Shown here piece after piece: positions 3,819 to 37,308 of a stretch of DNA of 50,436 bases. Numbering within the stretch: the stretch's first letter is position 1; each line of letters starts with the position of its first letter. Below the pieces are notes generated by a model. The model saw only the letters and a program-made list of their open reading frames with translations, did not search any database and had not been told where the DNA came from. Origin of the DNA: Girardia tigrina (taxonomy: Eukaryota). The stretch is taken from assembly GCA_001938485.1 (NCBI GenBank), contig MQRK01243332.1:5501-55936 (forward strand), given 5' to 3'. The position numbers were made by a program, and so were the translations under genes.

Positions 3819-5115
3819 TTAGGGTGAACCAAAAGTCATTTCGTATTTTTTATTAAAAATTTAAACATAATTTTACAACAAATAAAAAAAAATTTAAGTT
3901 TCAAAGTAAAGGCCATTTGAATCTATAGCTTGAACCCATCTATGACCAAGTTGTTCGATCCCGCTGCGGTACCAATCCTTGTTCTTGGAAGCGAAGAATT
4001 GGTGACACCCGTTTTCGACCTTGGTCAGATTAGTGAAGCTGCGACCACGAATAAAGTGTGCCATAGAGCGGAAAAGGTGATAGTCGGAAGGCGCAAGATC
4101 TGGACTATACGCTGGATGTGGAAGAAGTTCAAAGGCATCGAGATTTTTGATTTTTTCCTTTGTTTGTTTGGCGGTGTGCGGTTTTGCATTGTCCTGTTGT
4201 AGAAGAACTCACTTTCGATTGATCAAAGCGGGGTATTTCTCGCCAAGTGTCGCATACATTCAATCAAGTTGGGCGCAGTAAAGATCAGCGTCGATGGTAC
4301 GACCATTTGGAACTAACTCGAAGTGAATCACGCCTTCGAAATTCTACCAAACACAAAAAAGTGCCTTCCTTGAGAAACGATCTCGTTTCGCTACCGGTTT
4401 CGCCATTTGTCCGGGATCCAACCATTGATTTTGTTGGTCTGGATTACTGAAGTAAACCCACTTTTCATCGCAAGTTACAATTCGACGGATAAAACGGTCA
4501 TCGCGCGGATTTTCAAGCAATTTTTGACAAGTTTCGAAACGCTTTTCGGCTTGAATTTGTGTCAATTCATGAGGCAAATCTCGACATCGTCTATTGACCT
4601 TGCCAAGAGCGTGAAGGTGTCGTACAATGGATATTTCAGGAATATCGAGTTCGGCCGACAATGTACGAGTACTTATTGACGGATTTTTCTCGACTGCTTA
4701 ACGAATTGCTCCGGAATCTACGGTGATAGGTCGGTCTGAACGTGCATTGTCTCCGAGGTCAATGTCGCCTTCGTTGAACCTTTTGAAACAATTTTGTGCA
4801 TTACGCCTTACTTTACATTACATTACATTATCGCCTTCAAATTCACATAACTTCTTTGTTGTTGCAGTTGTGTTTAAGCCCTGTTTTCAGTAATGGCGTA
4901 AAAGAACACGAATTTCAAAATTTTCTATGATTTTTTTAAAAGACCATAAAAATTATATTAACGACTAATTAGTAGTTTTAATAGATATTGTGATAGAGCA
5001 GTTCAAGGGCTTTATAAAGATATAACACATGTATATAAAATATCTTTATTTGTTAATAAGAAACAATTGAACAAAAAGACATAGAAAACACGAAAAGACT
5101 TTTGGTTCAAACTAA
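3819..5115 (-). mobile_element. Full-length (1297 bp) mariner DD34D transposon with inactivated transposase
   Basis: TIRs TTAGGGTGAACCAAAAGTC / GACTTTTGGTTCAAACTAA with TA on both sides; motifs IVTCDEKW, QDNAKPH, HPAYSPDLAPSDYHLF; stops and frameshifts. Confidence 0.93.
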
Positions 5116-7168: not shown

Positions 7169-8511
7169 CACTGGGTAACAAATTTTTATAAAAGTCATGT
7201 TTCATGACACTTTTAGTGTTTCTTAATGTAATTTTGCTCACTGATTCAGAAAATAACATCAGTTTCTCCTTACCTTCAACGGTTCAAAAGATAAACTAAA
7301 TTTATATAATTAACATATACGAGAAATCAGATTTAATTACCTTACACAAAATAAGCAAAACATCAACATAATTGATAGTTACAATGTCTCCTTTGTGTAT
7401 ACAATAAATGAAATGATTCAAGTAATCCTAAGTTCTTCAAAAATGCACAGTAGATTGTTTTTGTCTCTTATGAGTTGTGTCATCTGTGCGCACCAAACTC
7501 CATACATAGTCACCCATCCTGGCTTCGTCCCAACGTCCTTGATATCGCTTCTCCATCACCGTAATGTCCTGGTGGAACCACTCACCGTGCTCTTCGCTAA
7601 TATCTCCGAGATTTGGTCGAAAGAATTCTAGGTGAGAGTGCAGATTTGTTGACATTTTACAACCCAAATCTTGATAGCTGTTGAGTAATTCTTCAATCAG
7701 TTCCTTATAATTATCCGCTCTGTTGTTGCCAAGAAAATTAGAAACTACATGCTTGAAAGTAGTCCAGGATCTCTTTTCTTTTTCTTTCATTTTACTCTCT
7801 AGACTTTTTGATTCAAATCTGTCTCACTTGTGGTCTGACAAATACACCTGCTGAAACTTTAGCTTCTGATAGCTTGGGAAACAATGACTTGATCTCTTTC
7901 AGGGTTTCACCACTAGGATCTAGGGCTATTACAAATTGTTTAATCAATCCCAGTTTTATATGCACTGGAGGTAGAAGAATTTTGTCTGCAGAAACAAGAG
8001 CGACATTGTTCACGCTGTATGCACTTGGTTGCAAGTCACTTCGTTCAGGCTTTCTCTTTAGATATAATGAATTGCTTTGTCTCTGATATCCCATAAGCAA
8101 AGAAAACAAGGGAACTTTATGAATCCACCTTGCGATTCAAGAAGAAAACCAATCATCTTGAAATCTCCCCAAACATCCCATTTGTAGCTATCGTAGTTGA
8201 CCTTCTGCAGTAAAGTTCTAACATTACTATAGTCCTCCTTCAAGTGGACACTGTGACCGATTGGTATCGAAGGATTCGGATTGCAATTGTGGATTAATAA
8301 TGCTTTTAAACTCCTAGTAGAGCTGTCAATAAATAGTCACCATTGATCTCGTTGATGTGTGACACCAATTGCTTCAAACAGCCCCATCACGTCTGAACAA
8401 AAGCAAAGTGTTTCCTCAACTCTAAAGTACTGAACAAATGTAGTGTGTCTATTTTGGTACTTAGAAATTCTCACACTTGGATCAAATAAATTCAATTCCT
8501 TTAGTCTAGAT
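7169..8511 (-). mobile_element. Chapaev3-like (CMC) DNA transposon, 3' half, frameshifted transposase
   Basis: LPPVHIKLGLIKQFV and LHSHLEFFRPNLGDISEEHGEWFHQDI...RYQGRW motifs; terminus CACTGGGTAACAAATT preceded by TAA. Confidence 0.75.
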
Positions 8512-8678: not shown

Positions 8679-8827
8679 CGGGTTAAGGTTATGGTTAGGG
8701 TTCGGGTTAGGGTTTAGGTTAATGGTTACACTGAGGGTTAGAGATTAGGGTAAGGGTTAGTTTAAGGATTACGGTTAGGGTTAAGGGTTAGTGTTGGGGT
8801 TGGAGTTAGGGTGAGGGTTATGGTTTG
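8679..8827 (+). repeat. Degenerate interstitial TTAGGG-like tandem repeat
   Basis: About 150 bp of GGTTAG / GGGTTA variants. Confidence 0.8.
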
Positions 8828-9688: not shown

Positions 9689-9736
9689 CTAAATCAGAAT
9701 ATTATCATAAAAATGGTGTAATGATACTAAGATTAC

Positions 9737-11048
9737 CAATAATGTTTCCAACTTCTATGTTACTAAACATGTACTGCCCTTTGACATTTAAGATTTGAAG
9801 AAACAAGTAAAAGAAAATTGGAGTTTTCTTAGTTATTTCGAATTTCATTGTTTCCGAATCAATGATTTTTTCCTTGATCAAAATAGTTTCTTTTTTCATC
9901 GCGTTCAAAAACGCCGTATGTTTAATTTCAAAGTCATCAAAAAGTCTTTTGCAAACATCTTCCGCTAATAAATGAATATCGCATTTTTTCAAATACTCTT
10001 CCGCTTGCTTCAATTTCCATTCTCGACTTTTGACATTAATTTCATTTTCTTTTAGTTCAATGTTTAATCCATTAGAAAGAAAGGTTTTAACACTGGTCAA
10101 AACAACATTCATAAAATCCTTGAAAATACCATGATTATGCTCAGGACTCAAGGAAGGTAACTTTTCGATTTTGTATTTAACGTTTAATATACGTTCAAGA
10201 ATGAGTTGGTAAGGGGCTTTTCCGACTTTTTTATTATTTAACGTTTGGTTGAAATTTTTTAAACTTTGAAAGGTCTTTTCTTCTATTGCGAAACGATAAT
10301 TTTTAAAAAGTTCTTCTGCCACAAAACTTCTTAATACATTCTCTAATCCTTGTACCAAGATTTTGATGATAGTTAACTGACACTGATCTATAACCTGTGA
10401 ATCACTAACGATTCCATCTTCTGGTATAAAAATAGAGGAAGGATATACTGTATCAATGATCGGATTAATTATTGAATCAGCCTCCTTTTCTAAATGTATG
10501 ATCAGACGACTTCTTAATTCTTGCTTAGAATCAGTAATAGCAGATTTAATATTTTCATACATTTCTTTTTCTATCCTTTTAATCAACGTAATTTGTTCAT
10601 AGTTTTCTTTTGTTTTTGTATCAAAATTTTGAGTATAGTTGATTATTTTTGCCGAAATATCCATGATGAAATTCATCACAATATCACAAGATTCACAAAT
10701 TTTATTTTTAAAATATAATGACATGATATTGTTGAGTTCTGTATAAAATTTACAAAATTGCATGAAGTGATATTGCGTCTCCGGATTGATGATGTTTGAT
10801 CTATGCTTAATGAAACATGTTAAAGAAGCCCCATGAAAGTATGGACATTCATTCCAATATTTATAAGATTTGGGTATAAAATTGTGATATTGCAACTTAA
10901 AAAATGACTTTGACATTTTACTTCTCGCGCAATTTATCGGATCTTGATTGATATCCTCTTCATTGTCTTCAGGGTCCAAATGAGAGACAAAATATATTAT
11001 TTCTAAATTTGGAACCAAGTTTTTCAATTCGTGAAGATTAGCAGTATC
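9737..11048 (-). CDS. DSTYK: Exon 2 of dynamin-like GTPase-kinase gene: end of G domain and long, probably helical, middle region
   Basis: 1312-nt stop-free exon in very AT-rich DNA; ttcag acceptor at 11049, phase 0; DTANLHELKNLVPNLEIIYFVSHLD continues the G domain at the G4 position. Confidence 0.85.
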
Positions 11049-11556
11049 CTGAATGTGATATTAATTATCTGTTATTGAATGTTAACATAATGATAATATA
11101 TAAGTCATAAAAATACATTTTAAAAGTATTTCGTAATAAACATTTACAATAACACAATCACTTATGAGAAAAACATAACCCTTGTAAATATTTTAGAAAA
11201 AGATGTCTTATTGATGTAATTTCCTTCACATTAATACTTTACCCAATTCTTATAAAATACCCTTCTTTTTTTAATTTTTTATGTAATTTTATACCGGCCT
11301 ATCGAAATTCGGAAACTGTAACTGATTAAACTTAAAATTAAAATTACATTCGGATTCACTACACTAATATTTATCAGATTCCCTTCATGTTTTGTTCTAC
11401 ATAGAACGTCTTCATGTGTTTGGTCCATTGAGAGAACAACAAGTTTCAATAACAAATATAGAATCGAGAACTCATCCTTTAATTTGATTAGCTCTCTATT
11501 CTGACACGACATGAAATCTTCATAGATTTCAGTCTTTCAAATGTAATGTGTGTGCT

Positions 11557-12630
11557 CAGTAGGGGGAAAATGTATGTTCTCCCTCAAATGGATAATTGAC
11601 CACCCGGGGGTGGGGTAGCCCGTTGCCATGGCAACGGTCGCATTCCCCCTAGCAACAGTTTCGGTCACCATAGTAACGGTTTCGGTTACAATAGCAACGG
11701 TATCGGTTATCATAGCTACCGTTCCGGTTCACTTGGTGACGGTAACCAAGGTCTTGGTTACCATAGCAACAGTAACCAATGACGTTTTTCATTAGCAACG
11801 GATACAGTGATTCAAGGCGGTTGTAACCATGGTAACGGTTACCGTATCCATAGCAACCGTGACCCTATCACTAGGGACCGTAGAAAAAAGTGCTAATCGA
11901 TAGTGCACATTGTGCCGCACATTTCTAATGTGCTAGCACAGTGATTTTTAAGTTGCACATGTGCAAAAGTGCAAAAATCAATACATAACATTTTTTAAAA
12001 GTACTAGTGTCAAAAATCGTTGTCATTTGTTTGATGCACATTATGATTCTCTATGTGCAATTAGAATTTTCATATATTGATTACCTTTCCATATAATTAA
12101 TTATGAAGACTCTAATTGCACATTCAGATAGAGAATCAAAATGTGCATCAAACACATGATATCGATTTTTGACACTAGTACTTTTAAAAAATGTTATGCA
12201 TTGATTTTTGCACTTTTGCACATGTGCAACTTAAAAAGCACTGTGCTAGCACATTAGAAATGTGCAGCACAATGTGCACTATTGATTAGCACTTTAAAAA
12301 TATCGATTAGCACCTCTGGGCACTGTGCAACAATCGATTAGTACTTTCTTCTACGGTCCATAGTGATTGGGTCACGGTTGCTATGGATACGGTAACCGTT
12401 ACCATGGTTACAACCACCTTGAATCGCTATATCCGTTGCTAATGAAAAACGTCCTTGGTTACCGTTGCCATGGTAATCAAGGCCTTGGTTACCGTCAGCA
12501 AGTGAACCGGAACCGTTGCTATGGTAACCGCGACCGTTGCCATGGTAACCGTTGTCATGGCAACGGGCTACCCCCAGCCCCGGGGGGGTCAATTATCGAT
12601 TGAGGGAGAACATACATTTTCCCCCTACTG
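11557..12630. mobile_element. Foldback / long-TIR non-autonomous DNA transposon (1074 bp) carrying X-box-like repeat arrays
   Basis: Arms of ~520 bp are inverted copies (CAGTAGGGGGAAAATGTATGTTCTCCCTCAA / TTGAGGGAGAACATACATTTTCCCCCTACTG); TGCT duplicated at 11553-11556 and 12631-12634. Confidence 0.9.
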
Positions 12631-14216
12631 TGCTCACTAGTCAGAGGACGAAGATGATCGTCAATCTTTTAATGTACGAATTTTTGATATCCGTAGCATA
12701 AAAATATATATAAAATATTAATTCGCAAAAAAATCAGTTTATAATTTTCATGAGAAAAAATATCAAAGCAATTAATCAATTGACGTTTAAATTTTATAAA
12801 TCCTCAGAATACGGCACTTTCAACTTTTTTTACAATTGTTGAAGAGTGACTGATCTGATGTGGTTGTTGAGGGTAGAATGTCTGTCTTCCTCAAAACTTT
12901 AATATTTAATCTTACCCTTCTTCCTTCTGTTATTCCCCTCCCCGAGGAGCGTAAATCACCATTTTTGTTCTAATCAAGTACCGTGAGAACATCTTCCGTC
13001 TTACCAATAATTGCAGTAGAGTTTTTTTTATCAGAAAAAGAATTCTGATCCCATTTTCACTATCTGCTCCTGATTTTACTAAGTTCACATCTTTCATATG
13101 TTCGATCTTTCCACAATTTACATAATACAATCTCGTGATATGATTCACTTCGATTTTAGAAACTTTGAAAAAGAAAATATATTCTTCCGTAGTATAAAAA
13201 AAGTGAATAGTTACAACTAATAAATCAGTGAATGTGTAACTCTTCGCTTTCTTACTTAATAAATAAAATAATTTATAATTAAAAGATATGTTTAATATTA
13301 ATAATATATTAGTCAAAAAATATTACAATAATAGCGTGTAAGTTTAAAAAATGTTTATAATAATCACTACCAACGGCGAAGAATGAGTAATAATAATAAT
13401 ATAAATAATAATTATAATATTTAAACTAATAATTTAAATATTAATATAAATTATATTTATATATAATAACATAAATAATTTAAATATAAATTGGAATGTT
13501 AATCCCTTATCCGAATGAGGACGCTAAAAGTAAGGTTCGGCGGATGAGACTGGTTCCAATAAATAAGGATAAAATATTACATACTACTAAACAATAACAT
13601 ATGATAATTGGTGACAGAATATATGCTGTGTAGAAGAAGAGGGTAAACTACAGGTAGAAATATAATTATTATCGTACGGATTCGTATCAACATAATTACA
13701 ACAACGACTATCTATTTTCGACCTCAATTCACAATCCAACATATTAAGCCGGCCAAGGAAGTCCTTTTTCGTGTTTGAATTTATGAGGACATTTTGGCAA
13801 ACTCATAAGTTTTAACTCGAATTTTTAAATTTAAATATTTAAACAAAGACGATTAATCACTTTCTCCATCACAAAAATTAAAATAGTTTTAAAAAATTTG
13901 AATTATGGATATCAGAATATGTTTGATATAAAATATTAATAAGATAACTGTAAAACATTTCGAGTTAAAGTTTAATAAATTCAAAGGTAATTAATTCAAG
14001 TTTAGGAATTAAATCCAAATTAAAAAAATCCAAGAAGTTAAAATAAATTAAACTAGTTAATCAAAAAATTAATTTTTTTATATCCATTCTTTATGCAGAC
14101 AGAAATCTACTTTGCCAACAAAGTTTTTAAAATTTAAAAAATTTAAGATATGAAAAATTTTTATTAAGAAAAACAAAAAATCAATAAATAAAAAAGTAAT
14201 TCTTTTTCAATTAATA

Positions 14217-14385
14217 TTGTTCTGGAACTCCGAATTTTCCTTTTTGTCTCATTTTGGGACCTTCAATAGTTTTTTGATCAAATTTTGATATAATCATTTC
14301 TTGCCATCGAGAATGAGTAAGCGTGCCAAGTTTGAAGAAAATCGATTGAGTAAAAGGCCTTCAAAAACAAGTTTCTAATTCCATA
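14217..14385 (+). repeat. Interspersed repeat fragment, second copy at 39828-39998
   Basis: Shared TTGTTC.GGAACTC.GAATTTTC ... AAGTTTGAAGAAAAT.GATTGAGTAAAA. Confidence 0.7.
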
Positions 14386-16536
14386 TATATTTATATATAG
14401 AAACTAAGCTCATAAAAAATCGAGAAACATTTTACAAAAAATGAATTGGCAAAATTAGAACAACAATGATATTTTAAAATGTGAATAGATTTAAGATATG
14501 GCGAATTATAAATTTGTAGTAATATAATATAAATTTAAACATTGCTAAGTATTTCTTTAAATTATATTGATGTTAAAAATTGTTAAAAATTAATTGTTAA
14601 AAATTAATTTAAATTGTTTTTTAAATTAAATATTAAAATGTAATTCTGTAAAATTATTGCAATTAAAAAGTAATAATAATTTGAATTCGTAAAAATAATA
14701 ATTTTAATATAATAACATATCATTATTTATAATTCAGTATTTTTATGTATAATCAATCTGGTCGAAAAGAAAACAAAAGTTCCTCAACAAAAATTGTTTG
14801 AATAATTGTTATAAAATAAAGTTTTGTGTTCCAATGACATCAATTATTGATCACGAAACCAACAGAATTCAAACCCAATTTTAATAATTATAACATTATT
14901 ATTTAAACTAATATTTTGTAACTATTTAAATGAATCTTAATTATATATTTTTATACGTAAATACATAAATATAATAAAAGCAAGCAAAATAATTCAGCGA
15001 TTTTTGTCATTCAAACTCGAATAATATTCTGATCATGAGAATAATAAAACCATTGATTTTTGAATATTCGAAGAAAGGGACGTCAATATAAATATCAATA
15101 ACAAATTATTAATATAATGAAATGCGTTTAACATTTCGAAACACGTGTCTTACACAAGCTGTCTTTGCTCCAACCTCCATTGGTCATGTGTATTGCTAAG
15201 TGATCAATTCATCAAGTGATCATTGTGACAATTTATTTTGGTGTGAAGTTTTATGATGTTGAAGAAAGGCATTGATTATCCAAAAGTTCACTTAAGCTGA
15301 TAAATTTAGTGATATAGGTTGCTACTTCATATTATCCATTAATATTTAATAAATTAATCTAATTAATAAGATTTAAATAGTATTGGTAAAGAAACGAAAA
15401 AAATCCTACATTTTATATATTATTAAATATTTTATATATTATTATTATATTAAATATTTTTATAAATAATATTATTAATTTTGATTTGTCATACACCAAA
15501 TTTTCTTATTTTATCAAAATCAGTTCTATACATAGATTTATATCTAATTTTGTATACAAACATATCAAAATGATATAAATAAATCAATAATTTGTAAATT
15601 GTATAACTATGATAAAGTTTATGATAAATTATGTTATATTAATGTTTAATTTTCCTTTGTAAAAGGGATTTTACTTTTAATGAAAAATTTTCTTTACTAT
15701 TTTAAAATATTACTAATTTTAAGGGAACTTTTCATATTTATTGTCGAATAATTTAATAATCATACAAATTAGTACTTAAAATTAGTAATTCTGGCTGAAA
15801 TTGGAGTCCCATATTGATGTACACATTCGTATAGAACATATATTATAGATTTATTATATTTAGATAAATTCGCCATTTAATTTCTGATATGTAATACTTC
15901 AATAAACCAAAAACTTCACTCTTATTTTAATGATATTCAAGTTTTGATGACAGCAAAAAAATATAATCTCGATATTTTATCAGACGACTATGAACTGTTT
16001 TATCAGGAAAAATCATATGAGGGTCAGTAAAACTATTGATTAAGAAGGGTTACAAAAATTCAATTGCGGTTGTGGTGCTCTCGTCAATGTCACAATAATA
16101 AAAAAACTCATCAGAACAAAAATCAGAACGGATGCACGTTTCACGGATTCGTTTGTACTGGGGATCACGGAGTCTGATATCACAGTCGCGATTGATATCG
16201 ATCGCGGTCCACACTGAAAAGCCCCTTGGTCACAACCTAGCAGCTGAACGTCTGGGTCGTCACACCGCTGGGACGGCTCTCGGCGGGAGACTCTGCGGAG
16301 ATAGCGAAGCGGCTACATAGGGAACCCAATCTAGGCCATTAGAAAATGGAGTCATCCACAGTCGAGTAGTTCGGGATGCGGCTGACTCAAGCAGTGTCAC
16401 GGACTTCAGCGGTTAATATAAATTTGATAATATTTAATATTTTACATAGAGGTTAATTTGTGAGATTTTATTTTATTAATTCTTTTAGAAGACTTCTTTT
16501 AGAAAAAACAAATTATAGAATATAATATAAATAATA

Positions 16537-16791
16537 CTCTCTCTGTTCCGAAATAATGTTTACATTTGGGATAAATCTTTCCGATTATCAGGATAGATAA
16601 TAGCACGTCAGGACCAACAAAAATTTCCATGGTTACAGGTCGCATTTTTTAACAGCATTTATGTCATGCTTTCCTTTTCTCGTTTTCAGCACTTCATAAA
16701 AGAATTTAATCAAGTGAGACCTTTCTAGTAAAGAAGATTGCAGCATTTAACACAAATTAGAAATGTAAGCATTATTTCGAAACAGAGGGAG
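16537..16791. mobile_element. Tc1/mariner (Stowaway-like) MITE, 255 bp
   Basis: TIR CTCTCTCTGTTCCGAAATAATGTTTACATTT / AAATGTAAGCATTATTTCGAAACAGAGGGAG; TA flanks. Confidence 0.85.
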
Positions 16792-16942
16792 TAATATAAT
16801 ATTATAATTGATTTCTGAATTACGTAAATTAATTTAACGAGAATTTTTTTATTTTTATGAAAAATTATTTGAAATTTTCTAGATACTTTTGGCTACCAAT
16901 TTTTAATATAATTTTAGTATACTAACATTACTGTTCTTTTAA

Positions 16943-18569
16943 CCCGTTGGGTTTACGACTTATAACTTTTGAACGAAGAGGAATTTTTCAGTGCGGTTTA
17001 TTTCTAAATATTATTAACTTTTCTAGTCCAGCTCTCTCGCTCTCTAGTTCAACTTCTATTCAATTTATTGCATCAGAACAAAACTGGAGCATGTGGAACA
17101 GGGAGAAAAAATCGTAAAGGATAGCCAAAATTCACTGGAAATTCACGAAAAGGAGATGTTCAATGCTATTGATCTTCAGCTCTTCTAGCAATGAAATGGA
17201 AAGACAAACGAGATGTCTACATGTTATCGACTCTAAATAGTACAAATTTCTTGAACAGTAAAAAAATTGATAGATCAAACGGAACAGAAATAATGAAGCC
17301 CGCTCTAGTCATGGAATATTCGCAAAAAATGGGAACTGTTGATGAAACTGACATGCAGATATCATTCTCTGTTTCAATTAGGAAAACTTTGAAGTGGTAT
17401 AAAAAGTTATTCTTTCATATGATGGATATGGCGATATTCAATTCGTATATAGCATACAGAATGAAGCACAATGCTAAAGACTTACAGCTTGCTCAGTTCA
17501 AATTGCTTTTGGTTAGAGAAATACTTCAGAGATATGATCCTTCAGAGAGAAATAGAGTTGGAAGACATTCTAATACTCCTACACCTTTGAGATTAGTTGC
17601 TCGTCACTTTCCCGACAATTTTCCACAAGATCTAAAGAGTAGATAACGAAGTAGAAGAAATTGTATTGTTTGTAGTGCGAAACAATTTCGACAACGAAGT
17701 TATTTCATGTGCCTTGACTGTAATGTACCATTATGCGTACCAAATTGTTTCCGAATTTACCACACTAAGCTTCACTTTGATGTAGATGAGTGATAAATAT
17801 TATTAATAAAAAAATTTTTTTATAAAAACAACCACGTTTTTCAAGCATTACCAATGCACTAAAAAGAGGAAAATAATTTTTTTTAAGACATGTGCGAAAT
17901 TTTATACCTAACCAAAAACGTGGGGCGGATTTCTGAATTACTGCTATTAGTAACTGCTATTTCCTCTTTACTGCTTTTTAGTAACAATCGATCATTTCTA
18001 TGNNNNNNNNNNNNNNNNNNNNNNNNNNNNNNNNNNNNNNNNNNNNNNNNNNNNNNNNNNNNNNNNNNNNNNNNNNNNNNNNNNNNNNNNNNNNNNNNNN
18101 NNNNNNNNNNNNNNNNNNNNNNNNNNNNNNNNNNNNNNNNNNNNNNNNNNNNNNNNNNNNNNNNNNNNNNNNNNNNNNNNNNNNNNNNNNNNNNNNNNNN
18201 NNNNNNNNNNNNNNNNNNNNNNNNNNNNNNNTGTCATCGGAAGCAAGCCTGTATAAAAAAATTCAGCTCAATTGGATGACTGAAAGTGGTCGAAAAATTA
18301 ATCGCAAGATTTGTTCCAGACAAGAAACGAAGCTAAGTAAAACGTGGTAAGTAATAATAAAAACCAATTCTAATCAGTAAAATATCATAATACTGAAATA
18401 TTCATTGAAAACTGTCGTTTGTAGCTCAAAAAATTCATTTTTGTTAATCTTATGTAATAAATATTTCTAAGTCTTTTTTTAATTTTTTTCATGCTGAATT
18501 ACCTTTGTTACGTCTAAAACTTCAATAAAATTAATATATCTCCAAAACGAAAATTCGGTAGTGAACGGG
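16943..18569 (+). mobile_element. Internally deleted piggyBac element retaining the transposase C-terminus
   Basis: TTAA|CCCGTT ... AACGGG|TTAA; WKDKRDVYMLST, YSQKMGTVDETD, KWYKKLFFHMMD; Cys-rich tail CIVC..CLDCNVPLCVPNCFRIYHT lies after a premature TAA at 17644; contains an N-gap. Confidence 0.88.
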
Positions 18570-18585
18570 TTAATATATATATATA

Positions 18586-19106
18586 CTAGTAAATAACCCG
18601 TCATGTATGACGGATATAATTATATAGAGTTAAAATTTCAAATAAATTTTCAAGACATTTTTTTTTAAAATTCATTTGTTTTCCACATTTAATCATTAGA
18701 AATANNNNNNNNNNNNNNNNNNNNNNNNNNNNNNNNNNNNNNNNNNNNNNNNNNNNNNNNNNNNNNNNNNNNNNNNNNNNNNNNNNNNNNNNNNNTTGAA
18801 AATCCTACCGAAAAATATAATGAATGAAAAATGTTGAATTCCAAAAGGCCAACCCAAAATTTGCTTAAAAAGTCAAAATTAAGAATGCTCATATTATCTA
18901 CTTACAATTGTAAGTGGATAATTATATTAATAATAATTCATATGGAAAATTATCATGAATAATTCTACTAATAATAATTTTCCATATGAATTATTATTAA
19001 TATAAATATCTACTTACAATTGTAAGTAGATAATATGAGCGTTCTTGACAGCGTTAGTGATGCAGTGAGGCAGGCAGTGAGTGACTTGGGCTTTTATAAG
19101 ATAAGA
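18586..19106 (-). mobile_element. Non-autonomous Helitron, both ends present
   Basis: Minus strand A|TCTTATCTTATAAAAGCCCAAGTCACTCACTGCCTGCC ... CCGTCAT-AC-ATGACGG hairpin ... CTAG|T; inserted in a TA run with no TSD. Confidence 0.8.
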
Positions 19107-19986
19107 TATATATGTATATATATAATCTTATATCGATTTTTATCATCTAATAAAATAAAGGCGTAATAGATGATTAATAACATATGAATATAAAAATATA
19201 AGAAATAATGAAATTCTGTAATATATGATTGGATATATACAAAAAATATTTAATAAAAACGTTGATATTATATATTGTTTTGTGAATATTAATTATAATA
19301 ATAGAAAATAATGGTCATTGTTAGTTTCAATAAAAAATAATCATATTTAAGTAAAGATCAAAACTTATAAAGTGAATAGTTTAATAAAAAATTTTTAAAA
19401 TGTGGTAAAACAATTATTGAAATGAGATACTGAGTGATGGAAGCAAGATTAAATAAAGTAACATATGTATATAGAAAAAATCGAGCAGGATCGGTTGCAA
19501 TCAGTGTACTCGGCCACAAGTGTATTTACATCAAAAGAGTTTTAACAATCAGATGAGTCTTTTGTTGTCGCTTTTTAAACAGTTAATTGGTTACTAAGTT
19601 GTATAAAGAGGGCAATTAGTGATTGTAACAATTTAGATTACTAATCACTGACAAAAGTAAATATATGTAACAATAATTTACCGTTTGCTAATAGACAAGA
19701 TTCCACACTAAAATATACTTTAAAAAAGTAATATGCATCGTATATATATATATATAATAAATAAAAGGAGACTCTGTTATCGACCCTGTAATAATTATGT
19801 AATACAAATTTAGAAATATTCTAAATTTAGTGATCGAGTAATATTTTATTTAATTTTGTATTATTTAACAACGTTGATTATCAATAAAGTTAAATTTATT
19901 CACAAGAATATGAAAAAAATATTTTTGTTATTTAATAATATTGAAATGTTTGATAAAATATGATTTTTATTAAAAAAAACACTCAC

Positions 19987-20739
19987 GGTCTGTTTAACAC
20001 CTGAGCGGCCATCAATAACATAGATTATAATTGGTAAAGTATCTTGGATTAATTTTGATATGTTGATCAGACAATCATTTTCATTTAGTCCAGGAGAATC
20101 TATTAAATCAATTCCAGATTCCAAAAATTTCACTTTTAAACTAACTCTCAGTTTTGTATGGTTGTCCCCATCCTCACATCGTACATACCTCCTTGGAAGG
20201 GAAGCATTTCTAAGACTTTTTTTCTTTACAACTCTACCATCCTCGTCAATTATTTGAAGATAATTTTTTTCACCGAAGGAAAGACGTGTTATCTTCTCCG
20301 TACATCGATCATAAGGAGTAGGTAAAACATTTTTTTCAAACAAGCAATTTATGAATGAACTCTTTCCACTTTTTAATTCTCCAAGAACGGCAATTATTGG
20401 GTTTTCTATATTCATATTTTCCATTTTCAACTGACCGCCTACGGAAAAAGCCCCGAGTTCTTCAATGACATTCATCAAACTATCGGAATCAAAGCACTTC
20501 ACAATGTCCGCACTGAGAAGGTGTGATACTTCACCGAATAGGTTGATGGTTCGAATCGTTAATGATATTAACTTTTCCCTTCGTTGTCGATAATTTTGGA
20601 TGCATTTATTAAGATCAGAAAAGGAATCCTTATTTGCAGGTCTTCTCCTTGTCAATCTAGTCCACATATTATCGCAAAATGATGATTGAATAGTGAATAC
20701 ATGACCGGATATCACTTTTGACTGGTAATGCAAGTTCAT
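19987..20739 (-). CDS. DSTYK: Exon 1 of dynamin-like GTPase-kinase gene: Dynamin_N-type P-loop GTPase
   Basis: G1 IAVLGELKSGKSSFINCL, G2 VLPTPYDRCT, G3 IDLIDSPGLNE; gtgagt donor at 19986; the ATG at 20739 is provisional. Confidence 0.88.
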
Positions 20740-21022
20740 ACACGTTACAAATCAATAAGTGGTTTTTGTTTAAGACTTTGCATAAACATTAGTCATAAAA
20801 ATTTATAATCACATATTAGTTGAAATATAAAATTACATTCCAGATTATTTAAATTTTACTCATTTTTAACAATTAAATTTGAACATTTATGTAAGCTTCT
20901 AATATTATATTTGGAAACAACTTTGAAAATCTGAAGATATTACCTTATTAAACTACTGTGACGGATAACCAGGTTTAAATTTATATTGTGGACGTTTGGG
21001 TTTAAAATATTTAAGTCAAGTG

Positions 21023-24044: not shown

Positions 24045-26590
24045 TTATTGAAAAGATTTATAGTTAGTACAATGAATATCCCCAATAACGGTTTTACATA
24101 AGTTTGTCATTTCAGGTTGGAAGAGGTGATTACGGTAGTTACATGAGTGGAGGCCTAATCGGGCTTTCTGGATGAAGTACCAACCATCGAAGGTGATCCA
24201 TCCTCTCGTGTCTTTTAATCTCTTGTCTTGGAGCAATAGGTTCCTGTGTGCCTTGTTTATGTGGTTAAATAAGATAGAGGATATGGCCGCTTCGATGGAG
24301 GCATTGACGAAAACAGTCTTGTTACCGAAGAGGATAGAGAGATTCACCCTGTTACTGTCATGTATCCAATCGAGTTTGGCGTCAATGTTTAGCTCCTTTT
24401 TCAGCATGATTCTGGTGACAGTGAATTTGAACTATTGGCATGCTGCTTTGTAGTAAGGTTTGGGCACGTTGCTATTCAAGTAATGGAAGATGTTTGGGAT
24501 GTCGTAGTGTGAGTAGAAGTTGCTGAGGTTGGCAAAGGCAGATTCTTTTAGTTTTGGATCTTTGGAATAGCGAGACGATAAATGTACGTGATTGATTGGA
24601 CTGCGTATTCGTCTGCCGTTCTCCTGAGTCCAGCTCCTCCTTCAGCTGTTGTTGTGTAGAAAAAGTGGTCACTGATGTTCAGAGGCAATTTCATAAATTT
24701 TTGAACTTGCCTTCTAATTTTGATGTCGAGAGTGGGGGCCTCTTCTTTATTGTTAGAGAAGTTGTTCATGGCGATTTTGTTAAGGCGAAGGTGGAAAGGT
24801 AGTTTGGTATGTAAAAAAAGCCTGTATGCGGTGAATTTCTGACTGGGAAATAGGTCGGATTTCTCAACTTTCTTGAGAAAATCTATGATTTCGTCAAATT
24901 TGGATCTCGGATTCGTGTATTGGTTGTGGGTTACCGGTGATCCAAAAAAATTGATGAGGTGTTTATTGTTGACGAAAGGGATAGGAATTCCGTTGATGGT
25001 TAATTTGTTGGTGCGGTTTTGGTTGATTACTGGAACGGCAAGAACTCTACATTTGGTTGGTTGGAAGTGGAGGTCTAGTTTTTCGGCGAGGAAAGATGTT
25101 GCATTTATCATGCTCTGCAAGTCTTGTTGGTTGCTTGCAATTATGACAATGTCGTCGCCATATGCAATAACTTTATATGTGGTTTGGCCGATGGTATATC
25201 CTTTGTTTGGGAAGGTGCTCTCTATATTCTTGATGAGAGCTTTTATGTATATGCAAAAAAGGAGAGATGATAGTGGGCATCCTTGTTTCACTCCTTAATT
25301 GATTTATGTGGATCCGATGTTTCTGCCTTCGATTTGTACATCGGTGGTGTTGTTTTTGTAAAGACTTCTTAGGAGGCTTAGCAAAATGGGGTCGATACCA
25401 AGATGACGGAGGATTTGGAAGAGTAAGTTCTGTTAGACACTTCCGTAGGCATCTTTAATGTCTCCGAAGAAGAAAGCTTGCTTGGGGATTCTGTTTCTAA
25501 TGAGATTCCAAAGTCTGACGTCGTCTCGGATGATGTTGATGACGGCATTGTGGTCATGGCAACCTTCGCGGGATCCAACGGCTTTTTGGTTTGGTGAGAT
25601 GACATCCTTGTCAAGGATCCAGTGTGTGCAATGGTGTACGATCAAGGAGGCGGCAATCTTAGGTAGAGTATTAGATTTGGTAATTGGTCTCCATGCATTT
25701 GGTAGTCGAATTTCTTCTGTGGATTTCCCGTTCTTTGGGATCATGATGGTGGATGATTTCCTCCAGGATTTGGGGACTTTTCCTTGGGTGATTGCTTCCG
25801 TAGGAAGGGCAATGATGTCATAAGTGACGTCAACCTTCTTTATGTCTGAGGGTCGTATTTTGTCGGATCCTGATGATTGTTCTTTCATTTTAGAGATTAT
25901 TCCTTTGACATGGTTTCTATCAGGCAAAGGTACGCTGAAAGGGTCGTATGGAAAGGAGGGGTAGAGGTGTGCAAAATGGTTGATGGGTAATTTTTTGACT
26001 CCAGTTTCTTTATCAGCAAAAATACTACTGATTTGACTGTTGCTGGGGGTAGTAGTTACACCGTTCTTTGCGTAAATTGCCATTTTAACTGCTTCCTTGG
26101 GTTGTTTGCGGAAAAGTTTGTTGAGGGCAATATTTGATCTGGGTTTGCTATTTTTGGTATTTTCGATGAATGTTAATCAACCGTCCATGGCGTTACGGAT
26201 ATTAGCGATGAGTTGCGCGTCTAAGATTTCAATTCTAGACTGCTGGCTAATAGGGATGGCTACAGCAGCAGTCGGAATTAGTTTTTTTACGGTATTGCTG
26301 GTGGTGTTGGGGGCAGTGGTGCGTTGGTGGTTATTTCATCCTCATCTTGCTTCTTCTTTTTGTGGGATCGTATTTGAGTGAAGTTTTCACTTTCATTTTG
26401 GAATGTCTCAATGGTTGAGAAGATTTCGGACGCGATTCGCTTCTTCTTGTTTGGAAGGGCAGCGGATGGGTTCATTGCGTTGTCTGAGTTGCGTTGGGGG
26501 GACTATTGACATGGTTGGTTTGGAAGGGCTGAGTCCGAAGGGCTATTTCCGAAAGAAATCGTCAGATTGCCGTTCCGCGATGTGTCGTTA
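24045..26590 (-). mobile_element. Degenerate non-LTR retrotransposon, RLE-type (R2/NeSL-like) reverse transcriptase
   Basis: WRKSSTIMIPK, WRPIT, PNQKAVGSREGCHDH, DIKDAYGSV, KQGCPLSSLLF, AYGDD, GGAGL; several frameshifts; endonuclease domain not seen. Confidence 0.82.
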
Positions 26591-28785: not shown

Positions 28786-29726
28786 TATTATCTTTTAGAA
28801 AAATTGTAATAATATTAAATTCTAGACGTAAATTTTGCAAATTTTATTTTTCAAAACATTTTTTAACAACAGTATTTTTGTTAAATTTTTTCGGTAATTT
28901 AACGTTACGTAAAATCATTTTGTCGTTAATACCGTTTAAAAAATTTTATCGGTTACGGATTTACCGTTGGACTCCATAATGCGGATAATTAAAATTTCCT
29001 TATCAAAAAAATATTTTCCGCATATTTCTTTTAATAATAATAAGGAATACTTTTCCAATATTTTCCAATCCAATACTGTCTCAAAAATCAAAATAACTCA
29101 TTTACTAATTAATCTTTACAATAATTGGTAATTCGTTAATAAAAATTTAACGCTAATATAAATATATACTAACTTCATAAATCACGTGGAGAATTAAATT
29201 TTTAATTTTTGTCGTCTATCAAAAAATTTGTTTCTAAGTTTTATCTTTAATTAATATTTCTATTTATTAAAATTGTAAATGGATTTTATTAGCCCATGTC
29301 AGAGCATCAGTAGTTTATATTCAATAAAAATGTTATTTTTTGGGATTTTTACTCTAATTGAAATGTCTATAATTCTGTGAATTTTTAAATGCCTCTCGTT
29401 ATATAAGCAGTTAAAAAGGAAGATTTTTTAAAAAGAAGAATGTATTAAATTTCTTTCAAATGTTCTTGATAATTAAAAGAATTTTTCATATTAAAGGATA
29501 AATAACTTTAACAGATTACAATTAATAATCACCCAAAATCATTGTAAAATAAAATTTCGATTGTACGTTTATTTACAATCTTAACATCTGCTGTGAGAAT
29601 GCTCACAACAGAATTAATAGTACGCCCATGATGCAGATTCAAGCGAGAAAAAGAATATTAGAAAAAAAAACAAATAACTAAAAACTTTAATTACAAACAA
29701 TCATATTCAGTAATAAAAAATAATTA

Positions 29727-31151
29727 TTAGTCCATATCAGCCCCATATTCTCCGTATCTCCTAATTGCTGCCGACATAACTCCATTCTCCCGTTCCTTCT
29801 CATTGTCTTTCCTACGGTCTTTAGTTTTGGATTTATCGGTAAACCGATCTCTTGACTTTCCTCGGGAGCGACTTCTATGTTTTCGTCGATTGTTTGAGCG
29901 GCTTCGATGTTTGTATCTATCTTTAGATCGACTTCCTAAAGCGATGTAAAAAGATTATTCAAAAGACATAAATTTTTGTGATAAAAATGTAAAATGTTGT
30001 ACTTTGTCTTTTATTACGATCCGAACGTGACTCTTTGTGATGTCTGTCACGATGTCTTTCCTTCTCTAAATCTCTTTCGCGATCCCTGTGTCGATGTTCT
30101 TTTGATCGACTTCGTCTTCTTCTGCTTGAATCGCGATCTCGTGAATTATCTCGAATCGATAATCGAGAATTCTGCTCAGGAGGGCCTCTTCGAGTGTCAC
30201 CCAATCCTCCTCCTACCATTCATGACACAAAATTAATAAATTATTCCAAATCTGTAAAATACTTACCAAGTCTGCGTGGCCTCCAGCTTTTCATGGTTCG
30301 ACCACGTTCAACGTCTACAAGAACACGACGTCCATCGATTTTTTTGCCATCCGCATGTTTATAAGCCGCTGAAAAGAAATTTCAAAAATTATTTCTTTTA
30401 AAATAGGAAAATTTTACAATTTTCAGAATAAGTTGTCGACAACATTTATAATAAATAAAACAATAAGTTTGACGGAAAACTTTTTAAAAAAACGTGTTTT
30501 GAAACTAATTGTAGAAATGATACATTAATAGGTATTATTGTTACAAATAAAAAGTGGAAGCAAATAAATAAGCTTTAGGCACTTACCACGCATATCCCTT
30601 TTGTGCTCATATTCGATAAAGCAGTAACCCCTCGGTTTTTCATTCAATGAATTTTTTATCATTTGAATTGTTTTAATTGTTCCATAACTTTCGAATTCCC
30701 GTCTGATTTTACTTTCCGTTGTATCGTAACTCTGAAATAAAATTTTCAAAAGCTATTAAAAGAATAGCTTTTAATTTACAATTCGAGCAACAAATAAAGT
30801 TTTGTAAGGATCTTCAGTGGCGTTTTCAATCTCAAGAGGTTTCCATAGAGCTAGGTCTTGTTCGAGTTTATAAGCTGTTTGTTCTTCTTTTTCTTTTCTC
30901 TGAAATAAGAATGTTATAAAAAGTTCATTAGTTTTTGAAAATTTAACTTTTCTTTCGCGTTTCTCTTCTCTTGTTTCGACTTTTGGCGGGATTGGAGTTT
31001 CAGAAGGATCTTCGAAATGTTTGATGTACTGAGCTATTCCAGTATACGGTAAAGACCGATGGTTTTTCGGACGTTCAATTGGCGGAAGAAACGGTATTGG
31101 ATCTCGAGGGGCAAAAAGAGCCAACAAATTTGGGGGTAAGTACGAGGTCAT
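29727..31151 (-). CDS. SNRNP70: U1 small nuclear ribonucleoprotein 70 kDa; exons 31151-30948, 30899-30780, 30731-30587, 30368-30267, 30212-30003, 29935-29727
   Basis: [43 protein letters not shown] (RNP1), [39 protein letters not shown]-rich tail; all five introns GT-AG and frame-consistent. Confidence 0.97.
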
Positions 31152-32710
31152 ATGTTATTGGGAAGGTTAATTTTAATTTTGTGAAATGTAAAACACATAA
31201 ATTCTATGAAAATTAAAACAATATATTTTATAAAAATTTAGGTAAATAATATAAAAGTGCGTATATCAAGTATAATTAAAGTCAGTTTATAATAACATTA
31301 AATATATTGTAATATAAAAACTTTTGAACAAAAATATTCTAATTAAAATTTTTAATTTTCCAATGATCTGAAATGTCTTTTTAAAAAATTTGATACGTTA
31401 AATTTTTTTCGGATCACTCAAATTAACCGGATTCTACTGTAATAAATAATTCAAAAATATTTTAACTAATCATAAAATCAATTTAATTTAATTTCATGAT
31501 AATATTACACGTTTTTCAAAATAGTTAAAAAACATTTTAAAGAATTTTCAAAAATTAAGGTGATATAATTATTATTATTTGTGGTAATATAGAGTTTTAA
31601 TTTTACATTGAGACTTTCATTTTAGAGTGAGATTTTTTTACATTCTTTTTATTAGTTTACTTTCTATATATTTATATAAAGACCTAAATTATTACAACAT
31701 TATTTTCATAAATCAAATAAGGATTTTTTTCCTTTTAAATTGATTTTTTTATTTTAAAATGATATTTTTTTCACATAAAATTGCGAATGTTTTATTTTCT
31801 TTATTTTAGAATTTTAAGGCGTTTGAAACCGGAATCTTAATTGAAAAAACTCATTTTAAAATTAAAAAATCTCAATTTAAAAAACATACTAATACACACA
31901 GCGACGTATATAAAATTTAAAATATCAATAAAAAATCAACAAATTTTCAAAAAAAAATTAGTAAATTAATATTTCAAAAAATGTTTTTAGTATTAACGAA
32001 TTAATAATAAAAAATCAGCAAATTTTAAAAACATTTATAAAATTATACTTATTAACCAATTGTGTAATTACTTAATTTGTCAGCGTGCAAATACCGTTTT
32101 TGACATCGCCCTTTTGTCATCAGCGAATTTTTTAGGTACCTTTTAATTTTTATGATTATTCTTTGATTCTTTTAAAATAAATTTTAACAACTTAATTCCA
32201 ATCTTGAACAATCGGTTTGTGTATGAAATACTGTTGTGTTCAATTTCGACATACTCTCCTAATTACTTCACTTATGAAATTTATACCTCTGAATGTTAAC
32301 AAATTTATTAGTGGTACATGTGAAAATGATTTTTTCGGCAGTACCTTTAGCTTTCTAATTTTACATTTTATAATACTTAGAATACTAGAATATTATTAAT
32401 ACTATAATAGAAGTATGATTTCTGTCTGTGTGAAGTTCCGAAGATTAAAGTGATTCGTTTAAACAACCACGGGAAATTTACAAATTATTGTGAATATCTT
32501 TATAATTATTTTACGATTATCTACAAATATTTTAACTGTTTTTCTTGCATTTTTAACCCACTTTCAATGATGCTATCGAGCTGAAATTTTCAGGGTAGTT
32601 ATTTTCCTATCACATATTGATTGAACAAATCAACTGATCTCAAAAAGTTAATTTTATTTTTTTTGGAAAAAAATCGATTTACGATTATCTACAAATTTTT
32701 CAATTGTTTT

Positions 32711-35700
32711 AGTTGTGATTATTATTTGTTTAAGTATTCTAAAAAGATTGTAAATAATTAATAAATTCTACTTGTTGTTATAATGAATACTGAAGTGAAA
32801 CCTGGAAATTTAACTGGCGACCACACTGGTGTTCCAATAAAAGTTTTGAGGCTTCCTAAACTAGAACTTCCATCAATTTTTAAGGAAACCCTCGAGAAGA
32901 AAATGAAGGAGTACAACGGAGTGGATTCTGAAGAAGGTCAAACATGGTATAGAGATATATGCTAATGGCTCAAAATTTTTTGGGTTAACATTCTTGAAAA
33001 TGTGTAACTATTTGTTGATAGACGAAGCGAAAATTCTTTGGGTAAATGCAACAGAAGAAGGTAAGAAACCAATGTCCGATGTGGAATCCAAAAATTGGTT
33101 CCAGAAAACATTTATAAAGAAAGTACCGCTGTTGGAAGAATTGGACAAACTAAGCCAAATTTGTCAAGGTGAGAATGAAAGATTTTTAACATTCGAATTA
33201 AGGGTTCGGAAACAATTGAAAATTTTAGGAAACACGGCGATGAAGAAATTTTGAATGAACTTTTAAAAAAGCGGATAAAATCTCAAGTTCTGAAGGATCG
33301 ATTTGTTTTCAAACCTAACATATCGGTGGACGAAATGAGAGCGGAAGCAAAGATTTATGAGGACAATATATCAAAAGAAGAAATAAATGATGTTTTAGCC
33401 GACAAAAAATCGTATGCAGAAATGGCAAAGAAAGACAAATATGAAGTTAGAAGATATGAGAATCCTGAACATAAAAGAAATACAGCTCGATTGAATGAAT
33501 CAAACGATAGACAACCAATATTAAGAACGAAACGTAGAATACAATCGGAAAAATTTAGTAAAAGTAATGAGAAAGGATCCAGTAGAATGTCAGAAGATAA
33601 AAAACAATATAATCGCCCGGTGCATTCGGCTTGGTACAAAGCAAGGAAGTTATATTGCAAAATAAAGAGACTTTCAACTCCAGAAGAGGAGTATTTTAAC
33701 CAGAGGGGATTGTTATTGCTGTGGAAAACATGGGCATTTGAGGAAAGATTGTCCTTTAAATAATCGTTGCTTAATCTGTGGAAAAAGTGGACACGGGTTC
33801 AGAAACTGTAATCATATTAAGAATGTTAATGTAGTATGCATCAAAGATGTGTACAATGAAGACAACATGGATATCGTATCATGTAATGATGAATGTGAAG
33901 ATGATTTAAACGCCAGAAACTCCGTGGTGAGCATTTCGTCTGTGGAGTCGGCATAAAATATCCAAAAAATCGAATTGCAGAGATAGTAAAGGGGTCAGAT
34001 GGTAGATGGTAGAGCGATGTTAAGCTGAACAATCACAACGTATTAATGTTGTTGGATAGTGGAGCGGGTGTTTCAGTTATTAGTGAGAAGTTTTGGTTGG
34101 AAATCGGACAACCCAGATTAGAAAAGAGCCCAATTATACTAAATGGAGCGTTTTCAGAAGGCCATAAGTATTTGGGAAGAATGACAGTGAAGTTGAAATG
34201 GAAAGAAGAGTGCCATGCGGTAGATTTTTTAGTGGTGAAAGCAATCCGACCGGCAGTCATTGGAGGTGTTAATGTCATGCATAAATTCGGAATCAAACTT
34301 GAAAAAAACTATGAAGAAGTCAGTTGTGACAGTGCAGACAGATATGAAACTGCAAGAGCAAAACAAAAGACTGAAAGACCTTGTGAAACGATATGATGAT
34401 GTTTTCATGAAACATGAATATGATCTAGGATTTACGGATATTGTTGTCCATAAAATTGAAACAGGAGGTAAACCGATTTTTCTGAATCCAAGAAGGCAAT
34501 CAATTCATTTAGAAAGTCAAATCGAAGGATTTCTGAAAGGATTAGAAAAGGCAGGAATAATTCGGAAATGTAAAAGTGAATGGAACTCCCCGTTAGTCAT
34601 TACACCAAAGAAAGATGGAGGTATTCGAATTTGTTTAGATTTCAGAAAATTGAATGATGTATCAAAGAAAGTTTCCTTTCCAATGCCAGACAGCCAAATG
34701 TTAATGGATGCTCTGGGTGACTCCAGAATTTTTCCAGTATAGATTTAGGCAAAGCATACCATCAAGTAGCATTGGATGAACGTTCTCAAGAAAAGACTGC
34801 GTTTTGCACAAGAACACAGCAGTATTGTTTTAACCGTGTACCGTTTGGACTTTCAACAGCACCAGGAACGTTTCAGAGAATAATGAATTCATTATTTGAA
34901 GATTTACTATTCTCTGGAGTAGTAACATACCTAGATGATGTCTTAATTTACTCAAAATCAATGGAGGATCATATGAGACTATTAGAAGAAGTACTGAATA
35001 GACTGAAGAAAGCAGGTTTAAAAGTCAACCCAGAGAAATGCAAATTCGGAGTGGGGGAGCTGGTATTTCTAGGACATACAATAAACAAAGAAGGTATCTC
35101 AACAAATAAATTGAAAGTGGCAGAAATTCAAAATTTTCCGATTCCAAAGTGTACTCGAAATTTACGAGCATTTTTAGGTCTGTGTAACTACTATCGACGA
35201 TTTATCAAGAATTACGCNGAATTAGCAGCACCGTTGCACAGTGCATGCAGCGGAAAATGTAAAGAAATATTTTGGTCAGACGAGTGCGACAGAAGTTTTA
35301 ACGAATTGAAGCAAAAGTTATGTGGTGCACCAATATTAGCATTTGTGAGCCCGAATAATAATTTTATCTTAGACACAGATGCATCATTCGGATCGATAGG
35401 AGCACTTCTTAGTCAGATATGAGAAGAGAAAGAAGTAGTAATCGCGTATGCATCGATGACTTTAACCACAAATGAAAAAGGGTACTGTGTAACAAGAAAG
35501 GAACTATTAGCTTTACAAGAGTTCATGTTACATTTCAAGCAATATTTATATGGCAAGCGATTTACAGCAAGAACTGATCATAAAGCACTGGTGTATATGA
35601 AGAGTACTTCCAAACCAATAACTCCTCAATTCCAGACATAGTTAGCAATCATGGCTGATTTTGACTTTGATTTGAAGTATAGAAAAGGTGACAAACATGG

Positions 35701-37132: not shown

Positions 37133-37308
37133 GTTTTTTTTGCAATTTTAAAGCACTTCCCCTGATGCTATCGAGTTATTATCACTTATTATTTGTATTA
37201 TTATCACTTTTATTCTCACAGTTTCTTTTTACTTATTATAAAAAAATTAAATTAAAAAAAATTAAATTTGAAAAATTGAAAAATTTAACACCGAATTCGA
37301 GACAATAA

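Follow-up and report, generated by a model that had tools for sequence, protein, structure and literature searches.

A foldback element with probable Polinton-type ends and arrays of X-box-like motifs in an intron of a DSTYK-like gene of Girardia tigrina

The window analyzed here, a 50,436-bp stretch of the Girardia tigrina genome (GenBank assembly GCA_001938485.1, contig MQRK01243332.1, positions 5,501 to 55,936) with a GC content of about 30%, contains a DSTYK-like gene on the minus strand. The upstream exon region of this gene (19987–20751) encodes a dynamin-like GTPase domain (Pfam Dynamin_N, E = 1e-13) and matches Macrostomum DSTYK in 9 of 9 hits; the downstream exon region (9705–11048) is an open frame that continues the DSTYK-like protein. 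Between them lies a phase 0 intron of 8,938 bp (11049–19986, minus strand), which is delimited by an in-frame GT donor and an AG acceptor and is spanned by query residues 231 to 234 in the tblastn search. This intron harbors the subject of the present analysis, a 1,072-bp non-coding, near-complete inverted repeat (11558–12629), located 7,358 bp from the donor and 510 bp from the acceptor (exon edge at 11048), in agreement with the 0.5 kb given in the original prediction. To our knowledge, DSTYK is not an established ciliary gene.

The window is rich in remnants of other mobile elements. The same intron includes a second palindrome (18881–19046; 166 bp, A+T-rich, 90% self-complementary), for which no clear duplication was found, and transposase fragments of the piggyBac type (DDE_Tnp_1_7) and the mariner type (17173–17646 and 3894–4697) are located in introns of the DSTYK-like gene. 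Transposase-like remnants at 7437–8336, which produced no Pfam hit and which we take to be Chapaev3-like, adjoin a degenerate, telomere-like array of about 24 GGGTTA copies (8680–8825). A Gypsy-type retrotransposon (32711–37133) retains pieces of the protease, reverse transcriptase, RNase H and integrase and is flanked by 106-bp direct repeats that are 99% identical, so that it is probably recent. The window further contains a broken non-LTR reverse transcriptase (24548–26176) and a U1-70K gene (29687–31154), the exons of which are closest to flatworm proteins (68–77% for the named hits and 87% for one unnamed record).

A strand of the inverted repeat folds into a single hairpin with arms of about 520 bp each, that is, the foldback form originally proposed. 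The arms are 92.6% identical (441 of 476 ungapped columns, with 17 transitions and 18 transversions) and are further distinguished by two large indels, a 48-bp block present in the left arm only and a 52-bp block present in the right arm only. Because the arms differ by 7% as well as by indels, and because a target-site duplication flanks them, an assembly artefact is unlikely. From its outer end inwards, each arm comprises about 64 bp of terminal domain, then the array of 21-bp units, and lastly an inner domain rich in A+T. The left terminal domain (11558–11621, plus strand) comprises a near-identical end of about 33 bp (32 of 33 positions match the right arm) followed by a G+C-rich block (65% GC; 28 of 31 matches), and the right terminal domain extends over 12565–12629 (minus strand). 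The left inner domain (11886–12074, plus strand) contains two short palindromes as well as the words GTGC/TGCAC and ATCGAT in several copies; the right inner domain (12102–12348, minus strand) includes the 52-bp block missing from the left arm, with ATCGATTAG repeats at its borders. The arms are separated by an unpaired central spacer of merely 27 nt (12075–12101), and an internal coding region is absent.

Several additional features of the arms were observed. Across the inner domains (11886–12348), TGCAC occurs 33 times per kb compared to 0.9 outside, and ATCGAT 17 times per kb compared to 1.0, with both arms counted; the ATCGAT word resembles DRE/Cut-type sites, and the repeated words may form a second factor platform. 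Directly outside the first X-box-like motif, there is a 9-bp imperfect palindrome (11613–11621, with a mirror near 12565–12573) that approximates the 10-bp terminal motif of Muta1 minus one base and could be either a chance occurrence or the remains of a Mutator-type end nested in the element. When transcribed as part of the intron, the element would yield an RNA hairpin of roughly 500 bp, which might serve as a substrate for small-RNA production or editing. Searches for a microRNA precursor yielded 15 Rfam matches, all 15 far below the gathering score and all generic hairpins, and a scan for bacterial promoters, irrelevant to an animal in any case, stayed at the chance level.

The arrays consist of units in which a 14-bp X-box-like core is followed by a 7-bp spacer. 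The left array (11622–11885, plus strand) encompasses 11 units spaced by 21, 21, 21, 21, 21, 30, 29, 37, 21 and 21 bp, and the right array (12349–12564, minus strand) encompasses 9 units spaced by 15, 21, 21, 30, 29, 37, 21 and 21 bp; the 21-bp period is also apparent from the autocorrelation, which peaks at lag 21 (0.51). The original prediction listed 8 to 10 copies per arm about 20 bp apart, and while the array itself is real, the period and the unit counts are refined accordingly. All seven 14-mers quoted there are present (starting at 11622, 11757, 11823, 11844, 12515, 12536 and 12551), as is the perfect 18-bp palindrome (11620–11637) that contains the outermost left X-box, which scores 22.3 of the 23.2 possible bits with the matrix described below. 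Seven of the 20 units are degenerate.

The likeness of the units to X-boxes, the sites bound by RFX factors, which control ciliary genes, was assessed with a scoring matrix built from the base counts of 30 validated 14-bp nematode X-boxes (PMC3245922, Table 1; the single 15-bp site was excluded). Sites sampled from this matrix have a 5th percentile of 12.8 bits. At least 12 bits were attained by 13 of the 20 units (7 in the left array and 6 in the right) compared to 5 sites elsewhere in the window, and at least 15 bits by 11 units, with none in the other 48.6 kb. The consensus GTNRCC-N0-3-RGYAAC matches 7 loci in the element (mean of 0.02 and maximum of 2 in 2000 shuffles) and none in the other 48,592 bases of the window; a nematode consensus matches 11 loci in the element (shuffle mean 0.01) and none in those 48,592 bases, and a fly consensus matches 6 loci in the element and 4 elsewhere in the window. 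A tandem array multiplies any founder motif, so controls at the level of the unit were added: the score of the commonest unit was reached by none of 20,000 shuffled-unit concatemers and by 9 of 200,000 random palindromic 14-mers. By eye, the outermost unit of the right array is identical to the validated xbx-2/xbx-4 X-box, and 8 of the 20 units are within one mismatch of some validated X-box.

The pattern of variation among the units is similar to that among X-boxes as well. Left-arm units share just 62% mean identity, with a perfect RGYAAC inner half-site in 13 of the 20 units and a looser outer half-site. When 13 partly independent units (11 from the left array and the 2 outer ones from the right array) were compared, column conservation tracked that of the validated X-boxes (rho = 0.74, p = 0.003; rho = 0.65, p = 0.013 for the per-column information content), the majority base was the same at 12 of the 14 columns, and the second core position of the outer half-site was constant in all 13 units. 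The scores against shuffled controls and this column profile bear out the original claim of X-box-like motifs and support the view that the array resembles X-boxes beyond chance and probably evolves like them. Outside the X-box, three positions of the spacer match the core positions in conservation (13, 12 and 12 of the 13 units), and the arms differ from each other no less often in the cores than in the spacers (10 of 126 compared to 5 of 59, p = 1.0). The Myb-like word YAACGG occurs 13 times in the element, overlapping the inner half-site and the spacer, and 0.58 times per kb elsewhere; GGTWAC occurs 22 times in the element and 0.45 times per kb elsewhere. The location of the element is not that of a typical X-box: 29 of the 30 validated 14-bp nematode sites lie within 300 bp of a start codon (PMC3245922, Table 1), and a promoter-proximal site would be expected within 500 bp of the start codon of a ciliary gene, whereas this element lies 7.4 kb into an intron; the suggested link to the neighboring gene finds no support.

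The exact ends of the element are ambiguous by 1–2 bp, and three nested registers give a perfect target-site duplication, namely, 4 bp (with CAG ends), 6 bp (AG) and 8 bp (GT), so that the single DNA copy fits duplications of 4, 6 and 8 bp; duplications of 9 and 10 bp do not fit. In the 6-bp register, with identical letters at 11552–11557 and 12630–12635, the element ends in AGTAGG//CCTACT, a 6-bp end of the conserved Polinton/Maverick type beginning with AG. Vertebrate Mavericks are reported to generate 6-bp duplications and to carry 6-bp end motifs, mostly (AGT)2 or (AG)3, that are thought to aid the jump-back initiation of protein-primed replication (PMC8097293). In the supplement of that paper, AGTAGG occurs 37 times and CCTACT 41 times, 35 of the 36 places inspected are end motifs, nearly all from tuatara and axolotl, and a 2,085-bp Maverick copy that lacks all 8 core genes has a perfect duplication. 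The arms of about 520 bp are within the range of Maverick terminal inverted repeats (TIRs), 46–1,447 bp, as given for vertebrates (PMC8097293). The flank letters are slightly likelier under a true 8-bp duplication (0.086) than under a true 6-bp one (0.037); with the end words taken into account, a 6-bp duplication with AGTAG is favored over an 8-bp duplication with a G start by a rough likelihood ratio of about 130 before priors, a value calculated from vertebrate word counts and from the assumption that 8-bp duplications make up 0.3 of those of Mutators. The 4-bp register, for which AcademX (with reported duplications of 3–4 bp), Ginger and Sola were considered, needs four chance matches in the flanks (0.003). 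Among other families, hAT (TAG/CAG ends, 8 bp) has no such duplication at the respective register, and the duplications of Tc1/mariner (TA) and piggyBac/Kolobok (TTAA) were not found. Of the transposase-driven foldback envisaged originally, the form stands, and the ends point to a Polinton/Maverick integrase more than to a transposase.

Within the window, neither self-BLAST nor a search with the end pattern allowing 3 mismatches detected a second copy, and the left arm had no match in the phage and plasmid collections; the single 21-nt match from a GTDB scan with the 19-nt end was rejected, about 4 being expected by chance. A search of 1.84 billion proteins with the spurious reading frame of the array produced 4 matches, two of which (P0131 and P0133) were unrelated and of low complexity and were dropped. 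The other two, P0130 and P0132, are unnamed protein records from contigs of 1,211 and 1,090 bp that are translations of related array DNA, which implies that the element belongs to a family. P0130 parallels positions 11691–11893 in two segments separated by a frameshift, with 32 of 37 and 21 of 33 residues matching (E = 1e-24), and agrees with the left arm at the inner boundary; P0132 contains a 24-residue piece (22 identical) within unrelated flanks. Together with the target-site duplication and the long inverted arms, these copies support the view that the locus is a mobile insertion. A coding minisatellite was rejected: there was no Pfam hit and no Atlas hit, the 78-aa frame has no homologue, and an 84-aa frame is interrupted in the other arm by a stop and in P0130 by the frameshift. 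None of the three open reading frames of at least 70 aa inside the element has a Pfam hit.

Comparison with P0130 provides another view of the evolution of the units. Five good units show a total of seven visible base changes in their cores, each of them to a base tolerated in X-boxes (present in at least 5 of the 30 validated sites), against an expectation of 45% of the visible transitions and 9% of the transversions (p about 0.0007; 0.008 if transitions alone are considered). The test assumes the fewest base changes that account for the residues, back-translated in a single frame, and the count omits two more core changes that are visible in degenerate units, one of them at the invariant second position.

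From the anatomy, the end motif with its duplication, the X-box match and the conservation pattern, all observed directly, we arrive at a tentative reading to which we assign somewhat less than an even chance: the element would be a non-autonomous Polinton derivative in which the array is kept as binding sites of a host RFX transcription factor for the benefit of the element itself. Taken separately, a Polinton origin with mobilization by Polinton machinery is probable, and RFX has a better than even chance of being the protein bound by the array. Under this scenario, the two long terminal repeats of a Polinton/Maverick would remain, everything between them having been lost, either by loss of the interior from a long element or by copying of one end back on itself. 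An autonomous Polinton with the same ends would supply the protein-primed polymerase and the retroviral-type integrase in trans, leaving the 6-bp duplication. Retroviral-type integrases read only the tips of an element, hence integration would not require the 260-bp array, for which a role as a platform for a host factor is the better explanation. Selection would maintain the 21-bp array as RFX sites, the period amounting to two helical turns and aligning the bound proteins along the same face of the double helix. The element rather than the host would profit, with the array of the parent switching on expression, or assisting replication, in RFX-rich cells, such as ciliated epidermis, neurons and sperm-forming cells. 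Precedents from viruses are the terminal repeats of adenovirus, to which host transcription factors are recruited for replication, and the polyomavirus and hepatitis B enhancers, which are bound by RFX1. A planarian Rfx orthologue is reported to be linked to cilia gene modules, with its motif enriched in their promoters; H3K4me3 and RNA of planarian Polintons are reported to increase as neurons and epidermis differentiate; and Mavericks are described as strongly expanded in Dugesia. X-boxes can also repress, and multiple X-boxes can tune expression up or down (PMC3245922), so the effect of the array could have either sign.

Among the 119 open reading frames scanned in the window (of 134, the rest being mostly runs of N), there were no Polinton or MULE genes. 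The element has none of the Polinton core genes (pPolB, integrase, ATPase, protease, capsids) and is far below the typical 13–25 kb size; therefore, it is classified by its Polinton-type ends only and not as a Polinton. Counting against the Polinton assignment, the foldback shape with subterminal arrays is characteristic of Mutator and P elements, the end-motif data come from vertebrates rather than flatworms, and the literature searched yielded no description of this form for Polinton derivatives; RFX binding alone also leaves the conserved spacer positions unexplained.

A rather unlikely alternative, in our estimate, is that the element is a Mutator-type (Phantom/Muta1-like) foldback spanning 11559–12628, with an 8-bp duplication and with the 21-bp units serving as transposase sites, their likeness to X-boxes being convergent or RFX binding incidental. 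The 8-bp register fits the element, which has TIRs longer than 100 bp and subterminal tandem repeats; MULEs are characterized by TIRs of more than 100 bp and 8–10-bp duplications, and the nine 12-bp subterminal repeats of Muta1 enhance binding and excision (PMC5499845). The arrays of Tm1 are variable and unequal at the two ends, as in our element, and its terminal motif at one end shares the GTAGG word (PMC3169594). Mutators account for most foldbacks (PMC4079207), a foldback with subterminal arrays being typical for them as it is for P elements; Schmidtea has recorded MuDR families; and conserved spacer bases would suit an element-specific protein. Against this, AGTAGG//CCTACT would have to arise by chance (the rough ratio given above), the variation among units and copies that follows the RFX tolerance profile would be left without an explanation, and no MULE transposase is encoded among the 119 scanned frames. 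If the element is nevertheless a Mutator, it would be an ordinary foldback with a curious motif. It is likewise unlikely, slightly more so, that the element is Polinton-derived, which the AGTAGG//CCTACT ends suggest equally well, but that the protein bound by the array is encoded by the element or is a host factor other than RFX, such as one of the Myb type on YAACGG. The invariant columns that extend past the X-box into the spacer and the enrichment of YAACGG and GGTWAC speak for such a protein; the outer half-site is conserved in the X-box fashion, with its constant second position, and the unit that equals a validated X-box, along with the other near matches, speaks for RFX.

The two remaining alternatives concern the function of the array. 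Co-option of this copy as an enhancer through which RFX would act on the DSTYK-like host gene is improbable: a dense cluster of strong predicted sites does lie within the gene, several X-boxes can tune expression in either direction (PMC3245922), and nematode Polinton TIRs are reported to have been co-opted at the eri-6/7 locus, but the upstream exon is 7.4 kb away, the same intron contains other transposon debris, and core changes are not depleted between the arms. Moreover, this copy looks recent and intact, so that selection on the motif would predate the insertion. An RFX sponge, or a neutral minisatellite that resembles the X-box by chance, appears highly improbable. Tandem arrays amplify any founder, and the site counts are therefore not independent, but the shuffled-unit and random-palindrome controls almost never attain the observed score, divergent units keep the core, and a sponge effect hinges on copy number.

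Returning to the favored reading, a Polinton derivative with host RFX sites, its extension to flatworm Polintons in general is doubtful: these elements would use RFX as a tropism switch, with phased X-box arrays in their terminal repeats activating them, or promoting the start of their replication, in ciliated and sperm-forming cells, and gene-less palindromic mini-Polintons would scatter the arrays and could put host genes under RFX control. We know of no host factor that acts on Maverick ends. If correct, the favored reading would name one, would explain the activation of planarian Polintons during epidermal and neuronal differentiation, and would be testable in an animal in which knock-down is routine; it would also reveal a miniature Polinton with a foldback structure, which is normally assigned to Mutator, as well as a route for the spread of ciliary regulatory sites. 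Mavericks are described as virus-like elements, the particles of which have not been seen (PMC8097293).

In the freely accessible literature searched, we found no report of RFX or X-box arrays in the ends of transposons or Polintons; the family itself may already be catalogued in repeat databases. Muta1 (Aedes) and Tm1 (Meloidogyne) resemble our element in their long TIRs, in subterminal arrays with unit numbers that differ between the ends and in non-autonomous members of about 1 kb; however, as far as their accessible descriptions go, the units are 12–15 bp long and not X-box-like, the duplications are 8–9 bp, and Muta1 ends in a palindromic motif that starts with GGG. The Drosophila foldbacks of the Tetris/Galileo type share the arrangement of flanking, repeat and inner domains in each arm but are reported to have much longer units (about 220 bp in Tetris), 8–10-bp duplications and a real middle domain. 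Polinton_CE_TIR of C. elegans provides a case of long Polinton TIRs that exist apart from the genes and contain predicted factor sites, although the accessible text includes no mention of DAF-19 or X-boxes and does not describe a self-contained palindromic element (bioRxiv 2024.01.15.575659). The RFX/DAF-19 X-box is, like our units, a 14-bp imperfect palindrome with a fixed RGYAAC-type half and a looser other half (PMC3245922); the validated sites are single or paired and promoter-proximal, in contrast to the 13 good, phased sites within a mobile element deep in an intron. The Mavericks of tuatara and axolotl with AGTAGG//CCTACT ends share with our element the 6-bp end words, the TIR length range and, if the 6-bp register applies, the 6-bp duplication (PMC8097293, supplement), a comparison made at the level of the end words, whereas ours is 1.07 kb long, almost wholly palindromic and gene-less, comes from a flatworm and contains a 21-bp X-box array. 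To the original prediction, the present analysis adds the AGTAGG//CCTACT ends, a documented Maverick/Polinton end type, in the 6-bp register.
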